A DNA stretch of 64,000 nucleotides, taken from NCBI GenBank assembly GCA_951406725.2, contig OX597817.1, positions 89,652,001 through 89,716,000 on the forward strand. The letters are read 5' to 3'. This DNA is from Octopus vulgaris (Eukaryota). A program made the translations under genes and the position numbers. This document shows positions 6,618 through 62,897 of this stretch, one piece after another. The notes under the pieces are model-generated. The model was not told where the DNA came from. It searched no databases and was given only the letters and a program-made list of their open reading frames with translations. Position 1 is the stretch's first letter; every line of letters begins with the position of its first letter.

Positions 6618-7410
6618 AGGGCGGCGAGTTGGCAGAAACATTAGCACGCCGGGCGATATGCGTAACCGTATTTCGTCTGCCGTTACGTTCTGAGTTCAAA
6701 TTCCGCCGAGGTCGACTTTGCCTTTCATCCTTTCGGGGTCGATTAAATAAGTACCAGTTACGCACTGGAGTCGATATAATCGACTTAATTCGTTTGTCTG
6801 TCCTTGTTTGTCCTCTCTGTGTTTCGCCCCTTGTGGGTAATAAAGAAATAGGTATTTCGTCTACCGATAAACGTTCTAAGTTCAAATTCTGCCGAGGTCG
6901 ACTTTGCCTTTCATCCTTTTGGGGTCGATTAAATTACCAGTTACGCACTGGGGTCGATGTTATCGACTTAATCCGTTTGTCTCCTTGTTCGTTCCCTCTG
7001 TGTTTAGCCCCTTGTGGGTAGTAAAGAAATAGGTATTTTGTCTGTCTTTACGTTCTGAGTTCAAATTCGCCGAGGTCGTCTTTGCCTTTCATCCTTTCGT
7101 GGTCGATAAATTAAGTACCAGTTACGCATTGGGGTCGATGTAATCGACTTAATCCCTTTGTCTGTCCTTGTTTTTCCCCTCTATGTTAAGCCCCTTGTGG
7201 GCAATAAAGAAATAAAAAACGTTAGCACACTGAGTGAAATGCTTAGCAGTATTTCGTCTGTCTTTATATTCTGAGTTCAAATTCCGAGGTCGTCTTTGCT
7301 TTTCATCCTTTTGGGGTCGACAAATTAAATACCAGTTGCGTACTAGAGTCTATCTAATCGACTGCCCCCTTCCCCCAAAATTTAGGGCCTTGTGCCTAGA
7401 GTAGAAAAGA
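6618..7410 (+). mobile_element. Composite Meta-domain-like SINE with four tandem ~180-bp internal units
   Basis: One head (ggcggcgagttggcagaa), then four repeats of gttcaaatt...gaggtcg...tttgcctttcatcc; ends with tail ccttgtgcctagagtagaaaag. Confidence 0.85.
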
Positions 7411-12891: not shown

Positions 12892-13059
12892 TGTATGTAT
12901 GTATGTATGTATGTATGTGTGTGTGTATATATATGTATATATGGGTACATGACGTTACAAAACGTAAACAACATGAAATACGAAAACCTGGAATAAAGAA
13001 TCTTTTTTGCGAACAGCGTAAGAAACAAATGGAAAAACAAGACAAGTAACATAAAGAAT

Positions 13060-13178
13060 GACCCTTCATCAGTTGTTAGCTGTTTATCTACTCCACATTT
13101 CGAGCAATTACAAGATATGCCTTCGAGGAAGCGGTTGCTCCCGCAACCCAAAATAAAATTTGGGATTTGCGGAGGGTC
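13060..13178 (-). ncRNA. Permuted hammerhead-like ribozyme motif (stem I shortened by a 3-nt deletion)
   Basis: GACCCU-hairpin-GAGCAA...AUAU C UUG UAA UUGCUC GAA AUGU...UAACAA CUGAUGA AGGGUC. Confidence 0.6.
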
Positions 13179-13735
13179 AAAGTTGGTAACAAAAACAGGA
13201 CAGTGAAAGCAAAACAGTGAGCGCTGCTAATCTATGACAAGGTGAGGTGGCTTCCCTCTCTCTCTCTATCTCTCTCTCCTCTCTCTCTCTCTCTCTTTCT
13301 CTCCCTCTCTCTCTCTCTCTCTTCCTCTCCCTCTTTCTCTCTCTCTCTCTCTCTTTCATCCCCTTTCGTTTCCTCTCTCTTCTTTCCTCTAATTCTCTTT
13401 ATCTCCCCTTTTCCTTCTTTCGTTTATTTCTCTCTCATCCTGTCTCCAATTTTTTCTCCCCTTCACCGCTTTCTATGTGTCTCTCTCTCTTTCTCACTCT
13501 TTCTCCTTTACTCCCTCGTTGCTCACACGTGAGCACTAGCCATCTTTCTTTTCTTAACTTGAGCTTCTTTCTTTCCTTCTGGTCTGTCGTACAGATCAGA
13601 CGCATTCTTTTCTGTCTCCTCTATTTTCTTTCCTCCTGTCAAAGCTTGTTCCTCCAGCATTCGCCACCTCACCTTGTCATAGATTAGCAGCGCTCACTGT
13701 TTTGCTTTCACTGTCCTGTTTTTGTTACCAACTTT

Positions 13736-13857
13736 GACCCTCCGCAAATCCCAAATTTTATTTTGGGTTGCGGGAGCAACCGCTTCTTCGAAGGCACATC
13801 TTGTCGTAATTGCTCGAAATGTAGAGTAGATAAACAGCCGATAACTGATGAAGGATC
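13736..13857 (+). ncRNA. Permuted, pseudoknotted hammerhead-like ribozyme motif, core intact
   Basis: Stem III ACAU/AUGU, cleavage triplet AUC (C13800), stem I UUGUCG/CGAUAA, CUGAUGA 13845-13851, GAA 13816-13818, stem II GAGCAA/UUGCUC, closing helix GACCCU/AGGAUC. Confidence 0.7.
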
Positions 13858-13985
13858 GTGCTTTATGTTACTTGTCTTTTTTTCCATTTGTAACTTTCGT
13901 TGTTCGCAAAAAAGAGTTCGTAGTCCATGTTTTCGTATTTCGTATTTCATGTTGTTAACGTTTTGTGACGTCCTGTACTTATATA

Positions 13986-14041: not shown

Positions 14042-14253
14042 TAACGGGAAAGTTTACGAAAATAAACAAAAAACGAAGGCAGGTGGAGTACAAACAAACA
14101 AGTGTATTAGTATAGCGCTCAGGAATAGAAATAGAAAAAGTCGTTTACGTTTCGAGCCTACGCTCTTCGACAGAAAGATACACAGAAAAAAACAAGGAGA
14201 GAAACAAGGAGAGAAAAAAATGCGTGTAGAAGCTAACGATCTATCATGGCGTC
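14041..14253 (-). mobile_element. Penelope-like element terminal fragment with minimal hammerhead
   Basis: Closely matches 49443-49655 and 59168-59380; flanked by TA runs; hammerhead-like motif at 14141-14178. Confidence 0.8.
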
Positions 14254-29328: not shown

Positions 29329-29785
29329 TGTGTGTGTGTGTGTGTGTGTGCGTGTATGTTTGTCCCCCGCTACTGCTTGACAATCGGTGTTGGTGTGTTT
29401 ATGTCCTCGTAACTTGATAGTTCGGCAAAAGAGATCCAATAGAATAAGTACTAGGCTTAAAAAGTAAGTCCTTGAGTCGAGTTGTTCGACTAAAACGCTT
29501 CAATGCGGTGCTCCAGTATGGCCGCAGACAAATGACTGAAACAAGTAAAAGATAAAAAAATAAGAAATAAGATGTGTGTGTGTGTGTGTGTAAGTCTGTC
29601 CTCTCACTACTACTTGATAGTCAGTGTTGGTGTGTTTACGTCCCCGTAAATTAGCGGTTCAGCAAAAGAGACCGACAGAATAATTATCAGGCTTAACAAA
29701 ATTAAGTACTGGCGTCGATTCGTTCGACTAAAATTTATTCAAGGCAGTGCCCCAGCATGGCCGCAGTCTAGTGACTGAAACAAAT
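29130..29785 (+). mobile_element. CORE-like SINE plus duplicated 3' half
   Basis: Full copy 29130-29550 followed by a second 3' half at about 29595-29785. Confidence 0.8.
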
Positions 29786-29958
29786 AAACGAAAAAAATTA
29801 CCAAGAAGCAGTTGGTCCGATATTCTACCGACTCTGCCAATTCGCCACGTAAATATATCAAAATAGTTGCTGGACAGTCAGTAGATGGCGGCCGAGAAGA
29901 CCGTAATGACTACAAATTAATTAGTCAAAAAATGTTCCTTAACAATGAGACTTTAGAT

Positions 29959-36163: not shown

Positions 36164-36197
<34 letters not shown>

Positions 36198-36198
36198 T

Positions 36199-36651
36199 AA
36201 AGCGGTGAGCTGGCAGAATCGTTAGCACACCGGACGAAATGCTTAGCGACATTTCGTCCGTTTGCACGTCTGAGTTCAGATTCCGACTTTGCCTTTCATT
36301 CTCTCAGGGTCGATAAATTAAGTACCTGTGAAACACTGGAGTTGATGTAATTGACTAGTCCCCTTCCCCAAATTTCAGGCATTGTGCCTATACTAGAAAG
36401 GATCAGTTTTATTATTAAAGCGGCGAGCTGGTAGAATCGTTAGCACTCCTGACAAAATGCTTACTGGCATTTCGTCTGTCCATAGGTTCCGAGTTCAAAT
36501 TCCATCGAAGTCAACTTTGCCTTTCATTCTTTCGGAGTCGATGAAATAAGTACCATTTACGCACTGGCGTCGATGTAATCCACTAGTCCCCTACCTCAAA
36601 TTTCAGGCCTTGTGCGTATAGCAGAAAGGATTATTATTATTATTATTATTA

Positions 36652-37153: not shown

Positions 37154-37239
<86 letters not shown>

Positions 37240-37240
<1 letters not shown>

Positions 37241-37345
37241 CAAAATGGGACAAGAACGCAAAACATTCAAATAGACGACACAAAAAAAGCGGACGGGTCA
37301 TTCGAAGCCTCTAATCTTCAGTCAAGAACCGCATCATCCTCGCAA
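37240..37345 (-). mobile_element. Terminal fragment of the permuted-hammerhead family
   Basis: Matches 56630-56748 and keeps UCUUGA-CUGAAGA-uuagAGGCuuCGAAUG; flanked by TA-rich repeats. Confidence 0.75.
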
Positions 37346-54190: not shown

Positions 54191-54561
54191 ATTGCAACAG
54201 TGTTACAAGGAGGTAAAAGTTACTCCCATCTATGAGTTAAATACCCGCGTACCGCTTTCTCTTTGATGTTTCGCTGGGTCTAGAGTGCGAGGTGTGTCTA
54301 TGCCAACGTACGAATAAACGAGACTTTAAGGAAGGAAGGAAGGAATAATGCATCAGAACAAGCTGTGGTTTTTGTGACCAAGTCATATTTGATTGCAAGT
54401 GAAAGCCGGCAGCTAGGAAGATATTTAAGTAGCGTTAAATACTGAGCCATAAAAAACCAAGTACGCAATGCGGAAGTGGTGTGTAGATAACAATTATTGT
54501 ATTGCTGAAATTACTGAAAGTAAGCGATACAAAAAAAGGACAGGAATAAACAAGGACGAGT

Positions 54562-54697
54562 CATTCGGGGCTTTCAATCTTCAGTCGAATTCCAGATTTT
54601 CTCAGCAGTTTCGGTCGGTTACACTCGAGACTGCTCCAATCCCCACCCCCAATCTAAGCTAAGAGTACTAGATTCCTTGGAAGAAAGCAAGCGAATG
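54562..54697 (-). ncRNA. Permuted hammerhead-like motif, core intact, upstream stem-II strand damaged
   Basis: GCAGU C UCGAGU guaa CCGACC GAA ACUGC ... AUUCGA CUGAAGA uu GAAAGC cc CGAAUG. Confidence 0.6.
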
Positions 54698-55482
54698 TAT
54701 GCAAAAACAAGGACGAAAAAACCGGAGAAATGGTACGCAAATAAAAATACAAACAACAAGACATTAACAACAGGTGTCTTTCGACTAAGGACGAATTAAA
54801 TTAAGCTAGTGTGTGTGGAAGTAAAGCCTTACGGCAAGGACATAAGAGATGAAAGTCATGGGAAGGAATATAGATGCTGCAAGGATAGCCGAACACCGGT
54901 CACGTGGAAAGAGAGGAGACAGGTAGGCAGAGAGATAGAGAATTAGAGAGGGACGAGAGAGAAAGAAAAAGAAAAGGGACAGAGCGAGATAAAAGAGGAG
55001 GGAAGGTGAGAATGAAGGAAAAGCCAAGGAATGTGAGAGACGGGAAACGAGAAAAAGAAAAGTGGAAAGAACACAGTAAGTGTGAAGAGGCTGAAAGAAA
55101 GAATAAGAGAGTCGTACAGAATTTAGATATATATATATATTACTTTCATCTAAGAGACCAAAAGTGTACGTACTCCGCTATATGTATATTTAAAAAAGAA
55201 AACAAAAATGGAACAAGAACGTGACAGGCGACAACAAAACACGTGACCGGTGTTCCGCCAAGCCTGAACTTTCTTTCTTGGTTCGACTACCATCCGTGCA
55301 GCAGCTATATTCTTTCCCATGACTTGCATCTCTTATGTCCCTGTCGTAAGGCTTCACTTCCACACACGCCAGCTTAATTTAATTCTTCCTTAGTCGAAAG
55401 ACACCTTTTGTTAATGTCCTGTTGTTTGTATTTGTATTTCGGTGCCATTTCTCCGTTTTTTTCCCGTCCTTGTTCTCGTATA

Positions 55483-55617
55483 CATTCACTTGCTTTCTTC
55501 CAAGGAATCTAGTACTCTTAACTTGGATTTTCTTGGGGCCGGCCAGATTGGAGCAGTCTCGAATGTAACCGACCTAAACTACTGAGAAAATCTGGAACTC
55601 GACTGAAGATAGAAAAC
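55483..55617 (+). ncRNA. Permuted hammerhead-like motif with GAA>UAA core mutation
   Basis: GGCCGG CCAGAUU gga GCAGU C UCGAAU guaa CCGACC UAA ACUAC ... AAUCUGG a ACUCGA CUGAAGA. Confidence 0.55.
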
Positions 55618-55730
55618 TCCTTGTTTTTTTTCCTGTCCCTTTTTGTATCGTCTAATTGTCCAGATGTTTTGTTGTCGCCTGTTACGTTTTTGTTCCATTT
55701 TTTTTCTTTTTTATATATACATACATATAA

Positions 55731-55771
<41 letters not shown>

Positions 55772-56077
55772 TATGTACGTATGTATATGGATATATATAT
55801 ATATATGTGTGTGTGTATATATATATATATATATACATATATATATGCATATATACATATATATATATACACACATATATGTATATATATGTTTATATAC
55901 ATATATACATATACATATGTATAACCATGTATACACATACAAAATATATTAGCACAGACTCATACACACGCGCATGTGCGCTTATACGCACACCTCATTG
56001 AGATATCTAGTTACTACTCTTCTTCTTTTGAGACCTGTTTTTGTACCATTCGGAAACCGGAAGTATATGAAGGAAAC

Positions 56078-56113
<36 letters not shown>

Positions 56114-56577
56114 AGAAGAAGAAAAATGAGGGGAGGAAGAGAAGAAGAAGAAGAAGAAGAAGAAGAAGAAGAAGAAGAAGAAGAAGAAGAAGAAGAAGAA
56201 GAAGAAGAAACGTAGGAGCAAGTGGGGATGGAGGTGGAGGCGGCTACATAAATGTACGATTGCGATACATAGAAAGCGAAAAGAAAAGAAGAAAACAAGT
56301 GGGAATGAGAAAATGAAATAAAAAAACTACAAGAGAGAAAGAAAAAAAAAACCAAAGAAATATAGGAAAGACGGAAGACCAATATGAATGAATCAAATCT
56401 CAGCTCCACCCGTTTTACCACCACCACCACCACCGCCACTACTACTACTACCAACATTAACGACAACAACAACAGCAATAAAGCACCTTAGTCACTCCCT
56501 CCCCTTTATACTTCCCACACATTTTTCATGGTTGGTGAGAAACGTAGTTTTATATGTGTGTGTGTGTATATATATAT

Positions 56578-57312
56578 AAGAGAACAAATTGTACGTACGT
56601 CGCTATATATATATATATATAATAAAATACAAAATGCGACAAGAACACAAAATGGAACAACAAAACATCCAGATAGACGATACAAAAAAACACGGACGGG
56701 TCATTCGAAGCCTTTTATCTTCAGTCAAGAACCGGATCATCCTCGCAATTTCGGCTGATTAATCTTGAGATTGCTCCAATCTGGCCAGCCCCAAGGAAAA
56801 CTAAGCTAAGAGCATTAGATTCCTTGGAAAAAAGCAACGAATGTATACGAAACAAGGACAGAAAAACAGACAATGTTACACGAATATAAATACAAAATAC
56901 AATAAAAAAAAATAATAATAATAACAGAACATAACAACAGGCGTCTTTCGACAGGGAACGAATTGAAATCAGCTGGCGTGTATGGAAATTAAGCCTTACG
57001 GCAGAGGGAAGAATATCGACGTGGCAGTGACCACAGTCAAACGCAAAAGGGTTAGCAGTCACGTGAGAAGAGAAGAGAGAGAAAAAGGGGAACAAAAGAA
57101 TTAAGGAGGGGAGAAGAGAGAGAGAGAGAAAGAGAGTGTGTAGAAGAAGCAGATAGACTGAAGAGTCAAGGAGTGGCGAGAAAAAAAGAGAGACAGGGAC
57201 ATGGTGAAGTGCAAAGTAAGAAAAACAAAGAAATGTGAGAGAGTGGGGAGAAAGATTTGAAAAAGTCGTACAAGATTTAGTGAAATGTGTACTTACATAT
57301 AAGAGAACAAAG
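56578..57312 (-). mobile_element. Non-coding ~720-bp repeat unit with short direct terminal repeat
   Basis: Homologous to 54520-55240; taagagaacaaa at 56577 and 57300; TA-rich flanks. Confidence 0.7.
56702..56843 (-). ncRNA. Permuted, pseudoknotted hammerhead-like ribozyme motif, all helices intact
   Basis: Stem III GCAAU/AUUGC, triplet AUC (56769), stem I UCAAGA/UCUUGA, stem II GGCUGG/UCAGCC, CUGAAGA, GAA, hairpin CCAAGGAA/UUCCUUGG, closing helix CAUUCG-GCUUUU / AAAGGC-CGAAUG. Confidence 0.72.
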
Positions 57313-57840
57313 TATATATGTATATATGTATATATATATAAGAGTATATATTTTTAAATATATAATTATATACTTAAAAATTATATGTTCATTTGTTCAT
57401 TTTTTATATGCTAACATTTTTTATAAGTATAAATAATTTTTGAGTTCTCGAGTCATATTATGTGGTGGTACTATATTTACCCCATATGATTTCTGACATT
57501 AACAACATTGCCGAGATGGGCTAGTAGATGGATTATATACGCGGGAAATGCATGTATATATTGGTATCTGTGCGGGTAAATTTATCGCTATGTATATGTA
57601 TTTTTCGCGTGTATATTTGTCGGTGTATCTCTACTGAGGATTGAAAAATAATCATTATTACGGAGCATGAAATCTTAAGATAAATCTTTGCATTCGACCT
57701 GGGATTATAAACAAAGAACAAATTTAGAGTGGATTGTAGGTATTTGACATCTACTTCTAGCGTATAAGTGCTGGCCTTCCAGCGCCCTTAATTATAATTA
57801 TATTTTTATAATTATATACTTGAAAAATAATTTTACCTTA

Positions 57841-61941: not shown

Positions 61942-62503
61942 ATGTATGAATATATACCATGAATTAGTAAGCGACCGACTAAAACTACTATGCTCCTCCT
62001 TAATAAAACAATCCGATCTCCCTCTTTTTCCTTTCCGGCCTCTTCTTCTTTCCTAACAATTCCACCAAACTCTCACTCGTAAATTTTTGACCTCTTCTTT
62101 TTCTTTTATTTCTCATTCAACTCTTCAAAATTTTCTTTTCTTTTTATTTCTCATTACATCTCTTCAAAATTTTCTTCTGCATAAATGCTTACGCATGGGT
62201 GCACCATTGTACTAATTTACTGTAAACAGTAAAAAGACCCCAGTTTAATATCCTCAAAGACTCTTACTTTAAAGTCAGCATCCATCTTACAATAAATCCC
62301 CCTCTCTCCCTCTCATTTTCTTTATTCTTAACAATTTTGGACAATTCCCTACTCACAAATATTTTACCCCTTCCTTCACATTTCTTACTTACTGACCAGC
62401 TTATTTCTTCAAACATTTGTTTTCTTTTTCATCTTTTCTTTGTTTTTTTACTTTTTATTTTTCTACTGTGTTCTTCCGGCTACGCCACTCATTTCAAATT
62501 ATA

Positions 62504-62897
62504 TCTATTTCTTTATTGCCCACATGGGGCTAAACATAGAGAAGACAAACAAGGACAAACAAAGGGATTAAGTCGATTACATTGACTCCAGTGCGTAACA
62601 AGTACTTATTTAATCGACCCCGAAAGGATGAAAAGCAAAGTCGACTTCTGCGGAATTTGAACTAAGAACGTAACGGCAAACGAAATACCTATTTCTTTAC
62701 TACCCACAAGGGGCTAAACACAGAGAGGACAAACAAGGACAGACAAACGGATTAAGTCGATTATATCGACCTCAGTGCGTAATTGATACTTATTTAATCG
62801 ACCCCGAAAGGATGAAAAGCAAAGTCGACCTCTGCGGAATTTGAACTCAGAACGTAGCGGCTGACGAAATACCGCTAAACATTTCGCCCGGCGTGTT
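62504..62897 (-). mobile_element. Meta-domain-like SINE with two internal units
   Basis: Two repeats of ggggctaaaca.agag..gacaaacaaggac...gcggaatttgaact. Confidence 0.85.

Follow-up and report, generated by a model that had tools for sequence, protein, structure and literature searches.

A decayed, high-copy Penelope-like repeat of Octopus vulgaris that likely encodes a split, non-circularly permuted hammerhead ribozyme at its 3' end

The window analysed here is a 64,000-nucleotide (nt) stretch of the Octopus vulgaris genome (assembly GCA_951406725.2, contig OX597817.1, positions 89,652,001 to 89,716,000 of the forward strand). Its region 54562..55617 consists of two copies of one repeat, A (minus strand) and B (plus strand), which stand head to head and are 84.6% identical, while a third copy, C, lies about 1 kb away from them. 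Judging from their sequence, A and B belong to a sister subfamily of a non-coding, non-autonomous Penelope-like (Naiad-type) repeat, and it is the hammerhead-like ribozyme region at the 3' end of this repeat that is considered below. The window holds the following copies of the family:

54525..55241, minus strand: copy A, sister-subfamily unit of about one full repeat, decayed (from the unit layout; ends approximate)
55243..55720, plus strand: copy B, inverted and 5'-truncated partner of A, ending in (TA)n (from the head-to-head layout, PMC8557442; ends approximate)
56604..57310, minus strand: copy C, subfamily-1 unit, young (96-98% identity across the ribozyme with the 39 best relatives; 5' end approximate)
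37211..37345, minus strand: copy D, short fragment (3' part) of a member of this family, beginning inside the second strand of stem III

The repeat unit is about 730 nt long and, as seen in the flanks of genomic copies, occurs in partial tandems and inverted pairs with (TA)n ends. No coding frame was found in it, including the open reading frame of the Naiad clade (N-terminal GIY-YIG, CxC, DKA, reverse transcriptase (RT)). Insertion of Penelope-like elements is marked by (TA)n targets, 5' truncation, partial tandems and an adjacent inverted copy (PMC8557442), and the repeat shows what is expected of a non-autonomous element of this kind, i.e. partial tandems (pseudo-long terminal repeats, pseudo-LTRs), adjacent inverted truncated copies and microsatellite targets. 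A first look at the 2.8-Gb genome gave 2957 candidates for the ribozyme region of copy C and 2526 for that of copy B (40 scored and 30 fetched per query). As to a tRNA-derived short interspersed element, ARAGORN found 0 genes in the window, which is a weak test for decayed heads.

Read 5' to 3', the ribozyme region is built from P0, a hairpin, the 5' strand of stem II, a helix here called the I-helix, stem III with UC, the 5' strand of stem I, a 4-nt linker, the 3' strand of stem II with GAAA and stem III, the I-helix again, the 3' strand of stem I with CUGANGA, and finally the 3' strand of P0. The individual parts lie as follows:

54562..54697, minus strand: ribozyme region of copy A (UC 54630-54629, GAAA from 54612, CUGAAGA from 54584)
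55483..55617, plus strand: ribozyme region of copy B (P0 55492-55498/55611-55617; hairpin 55500-55536)
55537-55542/55569-55574, plus strand: stem II of copy B
55543-55549/55589-55595, plus strand: I-helix of copy B
55553-55557/55578-55582, plus strand: stem III of copy B (UC 55557-55558)
55559-55564/55597-55602, plus strand: stem I of copy B (CUGAAGA 55603-55609)
55575..55575, plus strand: G12U in copy B, private decay (0/29 sister copies)
56702..56843, minus strand: ribozyme of copy C, intact, with the extra helix (the I-helix) at 6/7 (outer helix 56843-56838/56707-56702; P0 56835-56829/56716-56710)
56827-56791, minus strand: hairpin of copy C, followed by stem II (56790-56785/56758-56753)
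56784-56778/56738-56732, minus strand: I-helix of copy C; stem III 56774-56770/56749-56745
56768-56763/56730-56725, minus strand: stem I of copy C; GAAA 56752-56749, CUGAAGA 56724-56718
between 56769 and 56768, minus strand: predicted cleavage site, after UC (from hammerhead analogy and the pile-up of genomic 5' ends)
56739..56777, minus strand: predicted kink-turn (k-turn) between stem III and the I-helix (non-bulged strand 56777-56775; 3-nt bulge, GA and 3b position 56744-56739)

The cyclic order of these parts is that of hammerhead types SGC, CSG and GCS, with the chain opened between A9 and G10.1, and this split is the distinctive point of the hammerhead-like core. A9 is followed by one U and then the 3' strand of P0, while the hairpin downstream of the P0 partner ends directly before G10.1, from which we infer that P0 and the hairpin would stack into one nicked helix and hold A9 next to G10.1. 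The core letters (CUGANGA, GAAA and UH, where H is not G) are intact in copy C, in 23/29 subfamily-1 copies and in 11/29 sister copies; stems I, II and III flank them, and the G10.1-C11.1 and A15.1-U16.1 pairs are present. For copy C, the nested elements (outer helix, P0, hairpin and stem II) also make up the predicted minimum-energy fold (z = -3.0), obtained with a program that cannot form pseudoknots. Copy A retains an intact core together with stem III (5/5), stem I (6/6), P0 (6/7) and the outer helix (6/6); a run of G stands where the hairpin should have its 3' arm and stem II its 5' strand, and it takes in part of the extra helix as well, leaving stem II with just 3/6 pairs. Copy B has lost the outer helix and pairs at 5/6 positions in stem II, 7/7 in the extra helix, 4/5 in stem III, 5/6 in stem I and 6/7 in P0, i.e. 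it carries mismatches in four helices besides G12U. The copies within 54562..55617 are probably dead.

A sequence-only reading of this region had claimed compensatory changes, relative to copy C, across the permuted hammerhead helices of A and B. The strands it quoted are all present at their coordinates (but two damaged copies had been merged into one description), and the claim was upheld on 58 further copies. Column majorities were taken from 29 + 29 genomic copies, leaving out two self-matches. Between the majorities of the two subfamilies, 16/88 paired and 12/45 unpaired positions differ, compared to 0/11 in the core, in line with the earlier statement that CUGAAGA and UC are unchanged. 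Five pairs differ in a compensatory manner (one each in P0, II and III, two in I), four changes are one-sided with pairing kept, and two pairs are broken in one subfamily, among them a C.A in P0 of the sister majority, in a column that is just 59% A. At least five compensatory pairs were reached in 16/200,000 random placements of an equal number of changes, a figure that is not independent, as the structure was partly read from the same sequences. In a 26-row alignment 92.6% of cells are paired, against 29-50% when the partners are slid by 1-3 columns; with relatedness ignored, the covariation score was reached by 0/500 shuffles and the number of pairs changed on both sides, one of five measures, by 52/500. 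Two subfamilies amount to one phylogenetic contrast, which alone would hardly be able to pass a corrected covariation test, and the stronger evidence is therefore that from other families.

Some particulars of the earlier description have to be adjusted. Stem II with 5 of 6 pairs is correct for copy B and not for the subfamily, whose majority forms a perfect 6 bp, the change being common to A, B and a few other copies. The extra helix CCAGAUU/AAUCUGG exists, but it does not simply continue stem III: between the two lies a 3 x 6 loop of k-turn consensus, and the helix's other end abuts stems I and II, in the place of the 'I' helix of type SGC (PMC10085705). The 4-nt linker keeps its length while its first letter varies. 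G12U is indeed found in copy B, at 55575; across 29 sister copies this position is G in 25, A in 4 and U in 0, so that the change is a private decay of copy B. By established chemistry G12U should inactivate a hammerhead, and natural copy B is a confounded test of this because of its other helix mismatches.

Support of a broader kind comes from a descriptor of the split order, which gave 50 matches in 1.26 Mb of sequence, made up of the window and of loci selected for containing these repeats, compared to 0 in 3.39 Mb of shuffles. Two further families, F3 and F4, were found in this way without a sequence query, and F3 is present in the window:

13735..13859, plus strand: family F3 copy (stem II from 13774, UH 13799, GAAA 13816, CUGAUGA 13845)
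13059..13179, minus strand: inverted partner copy of family F3 (descriptor match)

Family F3 (3209 genomic candidates) is unrelated in sequence to the repeat described above (family 1), and the majority of 30 F3 copies has all helices in other letters, with zero gap after A9 and before G10.1. Family F4, related to F3 and seen in four copies (listed loci L168:1850-2010, L034, L209, L210 and L247, the match beside L247 being a separate insertion), shows more compensatory changes, in stem I, stem II and the I-helix; additional subfamilies with new compensatory pairs were found as well. At the position of the family-1 k-turn, both F3 and F4 carry an AGUA/GAA loop, which we take to be loop-E-like. 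The seven-helix order is thus common to unrelated families, and family majorities have C or A, but never G, just before the cut. Together with the truncation pattern set out below, these families of like topology lend further support to the permuted-hammerhead reading; its core observation is confirmed as real, and as stronger than the window alone could reveal.

If the RNA were cut after UC, reverse transcripts would be expected to end there. A 5' junction at most 18 nt upstream of the stem II anchor was found in 1305 copies, and the first 100 of these as listed were used for the junction analysis. At or 3' of the predicted site start 93/100, versus 63% expected with (TA)n microhomology (P 5e-12), and 12/100 junctions lie exactly at the site versus 1 in the next three upstream positions. 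Junction density is about 101 per position near the site, compared to at most 17 upstream (321 in 19 positions) and at most 18 downstream (246 in 14). Upstream positions next to the predicted bond offer better microhomology, yet the peak stops at the bond. Thirty truncated copies were inspected in full; they are solo inserts, roughly 100-170 nt long, and 0/30 continue into a second unit. A single truncated master as the source of the peak was rejected, as the truncated copies stem from many subfamilies, several of which also have full-ribozyme copies. Position N7 of CUGANGA, alignable in 96/100 truncated copies, is A in 60, U in 19 and G in 17, with the other six positions constant in 91-95/96. 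Naiad-type truncations (17 places, 3 at the site, two of these being one duplicated locus) involve TA microhomology and are not counted as evidence. The peak of 5' ends is likely, if indirectly, a record of self-cleavage in vivo; a Penelope element in which reverse transcription starts internally has been described (PMC11167929).

A deep contig, seen in two runs guessed to be RNA, covers 56657-56761 and consists of a truncated copy whose junction with unrelated sequence falls at 56761, 7 nt to the 3' side of the predicted cut. It is perhaps a solo insert in an expressed transcript.

At the sequence level, the loop between stem III and the I-helix agrees with the standard k-turn as defined in PMC5061560 (a 3-nt bulge, then G.A and A.G), and does so in Naiad-type copies as well as in the two subfamilies. 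Its four G/A positions are kept in 27-29/29 copies per subfamily and in 15-17/18 Naiad-type copies, while the bulge letters vary. A rough estimate of the gap between helix ends, 62 Å, is reduced to 28 Å by a 50-degree kink, and the kink would make folding of one molecule plausible, not certain.

Naiads, a group of Penelope-like elements, were reported to lack a canonical hammerhead and to carry eight 'half cores' instead, among them that of the octopus family ('HHR_half_core'), for which PMC8557442 gives no structure. The last ~420 nt of 53/54 published Naiad consensus sequences were inspected by eye, a range that would miss ribozymes farther upstream. The split order fits 10/53 of these 3' ends (Bfor, Chem-3, Amil, Aacu, Anas, Movir-2, Plae, EuTe, Obim and Ovul), which represent seven independent lineages (ctenophore, cnidarians, acanthocephalan, clam shrimp, octopus). 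Their weak points are a stem I of 2 bp in Bfor, a weak P0 in the octopus pair and a P0 partly out of view in Plae; the Esco Naiad fits as well, with stem II damaged. Six nematode Naiads (Nbra-1 to -3, Hcon, Hpol and Asuum) appear instead to have an intact type CSG, and the other 36 ends show neither arrangement within the inspected range. A motif taken from the published octopus Naiad 3' end gave 643 matches in the genome (control 0), and genomic octopus-type Naiad ends fit the split-order descriptor. At loci with a linked RT, part of the Naiad 3' region lies downstream on the same strand in 12/30 and the DKA motif is present in 4/30; Naiad-type RT and DKA were found just in such separate Naiad loci and not in the ~730-nt unit. 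With (TA)n targets, 5' truncation, partial tandems and inverted copies (PMC8557442) the repeat resembles Naiads, as it does in the topology of the octopus 3' end, and it differs from them in having neither an open reading frame nor sequence alignable to Naiad copies. Naiad ancestry therefore rests on the topology and the k-turn, from which descent of the ribozyme of the window repeat from Naiads is likely. It is probable, with somewhat less confidence than for the repeat itself, that Naiads across animal phyla carry a seventh hammerhead topology (strand cut at A9/G10.1, a clamp of stacked helices, a k-turn), and those of nematodes type CSG.

Type CSG has otherwise been described so far from two metagenomic sequences. 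The Naiad ends of Movir-1, Chem-4, Mgal, Bpla and Mphi contain words that we take to be twister-like, and the oyster, hemichordate and two Clytia Naiad families have another recurring structured motif in common; ribozyme classes may have been swapped among Naiads. A young autonomous Penelope/Poseidon-type family is found in (TA)n at loci L246-L253 (753-amino-acid RT with a C-terminal GIY-YIG frame, preceded by a 367-amino-acid frame). It is a candidate mobiliser with no sequence in common with the repeat, and is a canonical C-terminal-endonuclease element. Its 3' ends gave no alignable sequence when compared to the repeat.

Taken together, it seems likely, and is held here with good confidence, that the region contains a decayed, high-copy, non-coding Penelope-like repeat whose 3' end encodes a split, non-circularly permuted self-cleaving hammerhead, likely inherited from Naiads; the RNA structure is real and under selection, and was most likely an active hammerhead in the source elements. 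In such a ribozyme the stack of P0 and hairpin would stand in for the single inserted nucleotide that is usual at the A9-G10.1 step of Penelope hammerheads (PMC4209133), bringing A9 to G10.1, while the k-turn would bend the arm of stem III and I-helix back and let one molecule fold. The ribozyme would cut tandem transcripts after UC and thereby give a 5' end to the template, on which a Penelope-type RT, supplied in trans, would start internally 100-170 nt downstream, run off at the cut and insert into (TA)n, giving short solo copies. Uncut RNA would give the longer and partial-tandem copies, and selection would act on the source elements and not on the inserted copies.

Several observations weigh against this reading. 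With regard to cleavage, only 12/100 junctions fall exactly at the site, while 27/100 fall 9 nt downstream, where there is AT microhomology, and the three density searches used different anchors with possibly uneven cover of the subfamilies. The truncation signal comes from subfamily 1 and its near kin alone: the search for sister-subfamily truncations gave only 14 matches, too few to inform, and that for F3 gave 168, the first 100 of which are mostly full-length copies of a subfamily that is one base longer. For a Penelope element of Anolis, insertion in vitro did not require cleavage, and the site was not the end point of any reads (PMC11167929). With regard to structure, an A.C pair breaks the I-helix (the extra helix) of the subfamily-1 majority, a gap of 28 Å persists even with the kink, and stem III and the I-helix of the clam-shrimp Naiad read as a nearly unbroken rod of ~15 bp. 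With regard to ancestry, comparison of the repeat with 20 Naiad-type loci gave no alignable sequence beyond simple repeats, Naiads were reported as long dead in cephalopods (PMC8557442), and the young Poseidon-type element is present here.

The alternative that survives best, although we consider it the less likely one, is that the same ribozyme is active only as a head-to-tail dimer, with stems I and II formed between two tandem copies and single copies spared; each copy would be a rod, one end formed by the half with the cleavage site and GAAA, the opposite end by the CUGANGA half. The links between stem III and the I-helix are short on both strands (3 and 6 nt; 0 and 4 in L115; 1 and 0 by eye in the clam-shrimp Naiad), which together with the estimated one-molecule gap (28-62 Å) would suit a dimer, as would the existence of partial tandems and the dimeric action of other Penelope hammerheads (PMC4209133). 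A linear dimer, however, does not need the conserved k-turn, which the fold-back does, and single transcripts of types SGC and CSG cleave, some SGC ones with a 0-nt link between stem III and the place of the I-helix (PMC10085705). The one-molecule fold is therefore modestly favoured over the two-copy fold.

It is improbable, by comparison, that the fold is real and selected but never was, or no longer is, catalytic (e.g. an element for RT binding or pausing), the peak of 5' ends being due to stalling and microhomology. A9 and G10.1 are not directly joined, and such a join has been assumed to be required (PMC10085705); many junctions also lie at AT microhomologies 3' of the site, and the dispensability of cleavage in Anolis fits here too. 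Against this, all catalytic letters are kept across unrelated families with N7 alone free, G is avoided before the cut in family majorities, and the peak ends at the predicted bond despite the better microhomology just upstream, at which point an enzyme moving 3' to 5' should already have removed all downstream pairing partners. Chance, with words that resemble a hammerhead and short stretches of complementarity arising in an AT-rich repeat and common descent passing for covariation, is hardly credible: two subfamilies alone underlie the original finding, 52/500 shuffles equalled one of five measures and Rfam gave no hammerhead match, but Rfam models encode canonical orders, the descriptor found nothing in 3.39 Mb of shuffles, and neither the seven-helix order in unrelated families nor the truncation peak is expected by chance.

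The preferred reading, a split hammerhead, likely places the topology beyond the previously described hammerhead types: it would work like SGC/CSG, with the block that is unbroken in those types divided here. With types SGC and CSG (PMC10085705) it shares the cyclic order S, G, C and the core letters, and with SGC also the shortness of the stem I-stem II linker (3 nt in SGC, 3-4 nt in the repeat) and an 'I' helix that joins the other sides. In type SGC, however, the 5' strand of stem II should follow CUGANGA by 0-2 nt, while here it lies ~65 nt upstream; CUGANGA and its two stem strands were assumed to be inseparable (PMC10085705). An intact SGC reading, with stem II after CUGAAGA, was rejected, since stem II would then have no more than 4 bp in subfamily 1, following a 5-nt insert, and no pairs in the sister subfamily. 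A descriptor for intact SGC gave 3 matches versus 50 for the split order, and all three sites also have a split partner. The order S, G, C does not correspond to the canonical types I, II and III (CGS, GSC and SCG) either, which have a three-way junction free of pseudoknots. Rfam at gathering score gave 0 matches in the whole window, and at E up to 5 only simple-repeat noise and no ribozyme in 54400-57400.

The minimal hammerheads of Penelope pseudo-LTRs (PMC4209133) are of type I with a vestigial stem III, in contrast to the full stem III, pseudoknots and chain opened at 9/10.1 found here. The (+) hammerhead of chrysanthemum chlorotic mottle viroid (CChMVd), with its extra A10, tolerates an insertion at A9-G10.1, U being best (PMC3705267), but this is one nucleotide and not a chain break with two helices. 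Animal non-LTR retrozymes resemble the repeat in being non-autonomous, ribozyme-bearing and low in GC, and were proposed to depend on Penelope-like elements (PMC7229834, bioRxiv 10.64898/2026.07.22.740005); theirs are type I ribozymes in tandem arrays of 150-450 nt with circular RNAs, whereas the repeat is not type I and forms dispersed, mostly truncated units of ~730 nt. Neither a split-core hammerhead nor a structure for the Naiad half cores was found in the literature searched, the coverage of which largely excludes subscription journals.

A split core would break the three-block rule that restricts hammerheads to six orders, which would explain why descriptor and Rfam searches missed a class with thousands of copies, and possibly also why Naiads appeared to hold only 'half cores'. 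What ribozymes do in the transposition of Penelope-like elements is a question on which the genome-wide peak of 5' ends at the predicted bond bears, as a read-out of cleavage in vivo that could be repeated in any assembly. If the reading is true, non-circular permutations are common in animal genomes and germ-line cleavage is recorded in thousands of copies, while a hammerhead with a k-turn and both ends leaving from inside the core would give structural work and the design of switches a new scaffold.

Some smaller features of the window may be added. Two short hairpins with GNRA tetraloops lie in copy B at 55345-55354 and 55394-55403, at places matched in A and C, i.e. 100-150 nt upstream of the ribozyme; both subfamilies keep them, and they could be sites of protein binding or tertiary contact. 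Tandem pairs and triples of 181-237-nt units are found at 6668-7214, 29337-29797, 36189-36645 and 62501-62873, presumably resembling common octopus short interspersed repeats. Finally, a minimal type-I hammerhead-like motif was seen by eye at 14145-14175 on the minus strand (4-bp stem II, GAAA, one core letter changed) beside the F3 copy, and is likely the end of another Penelope-like family.
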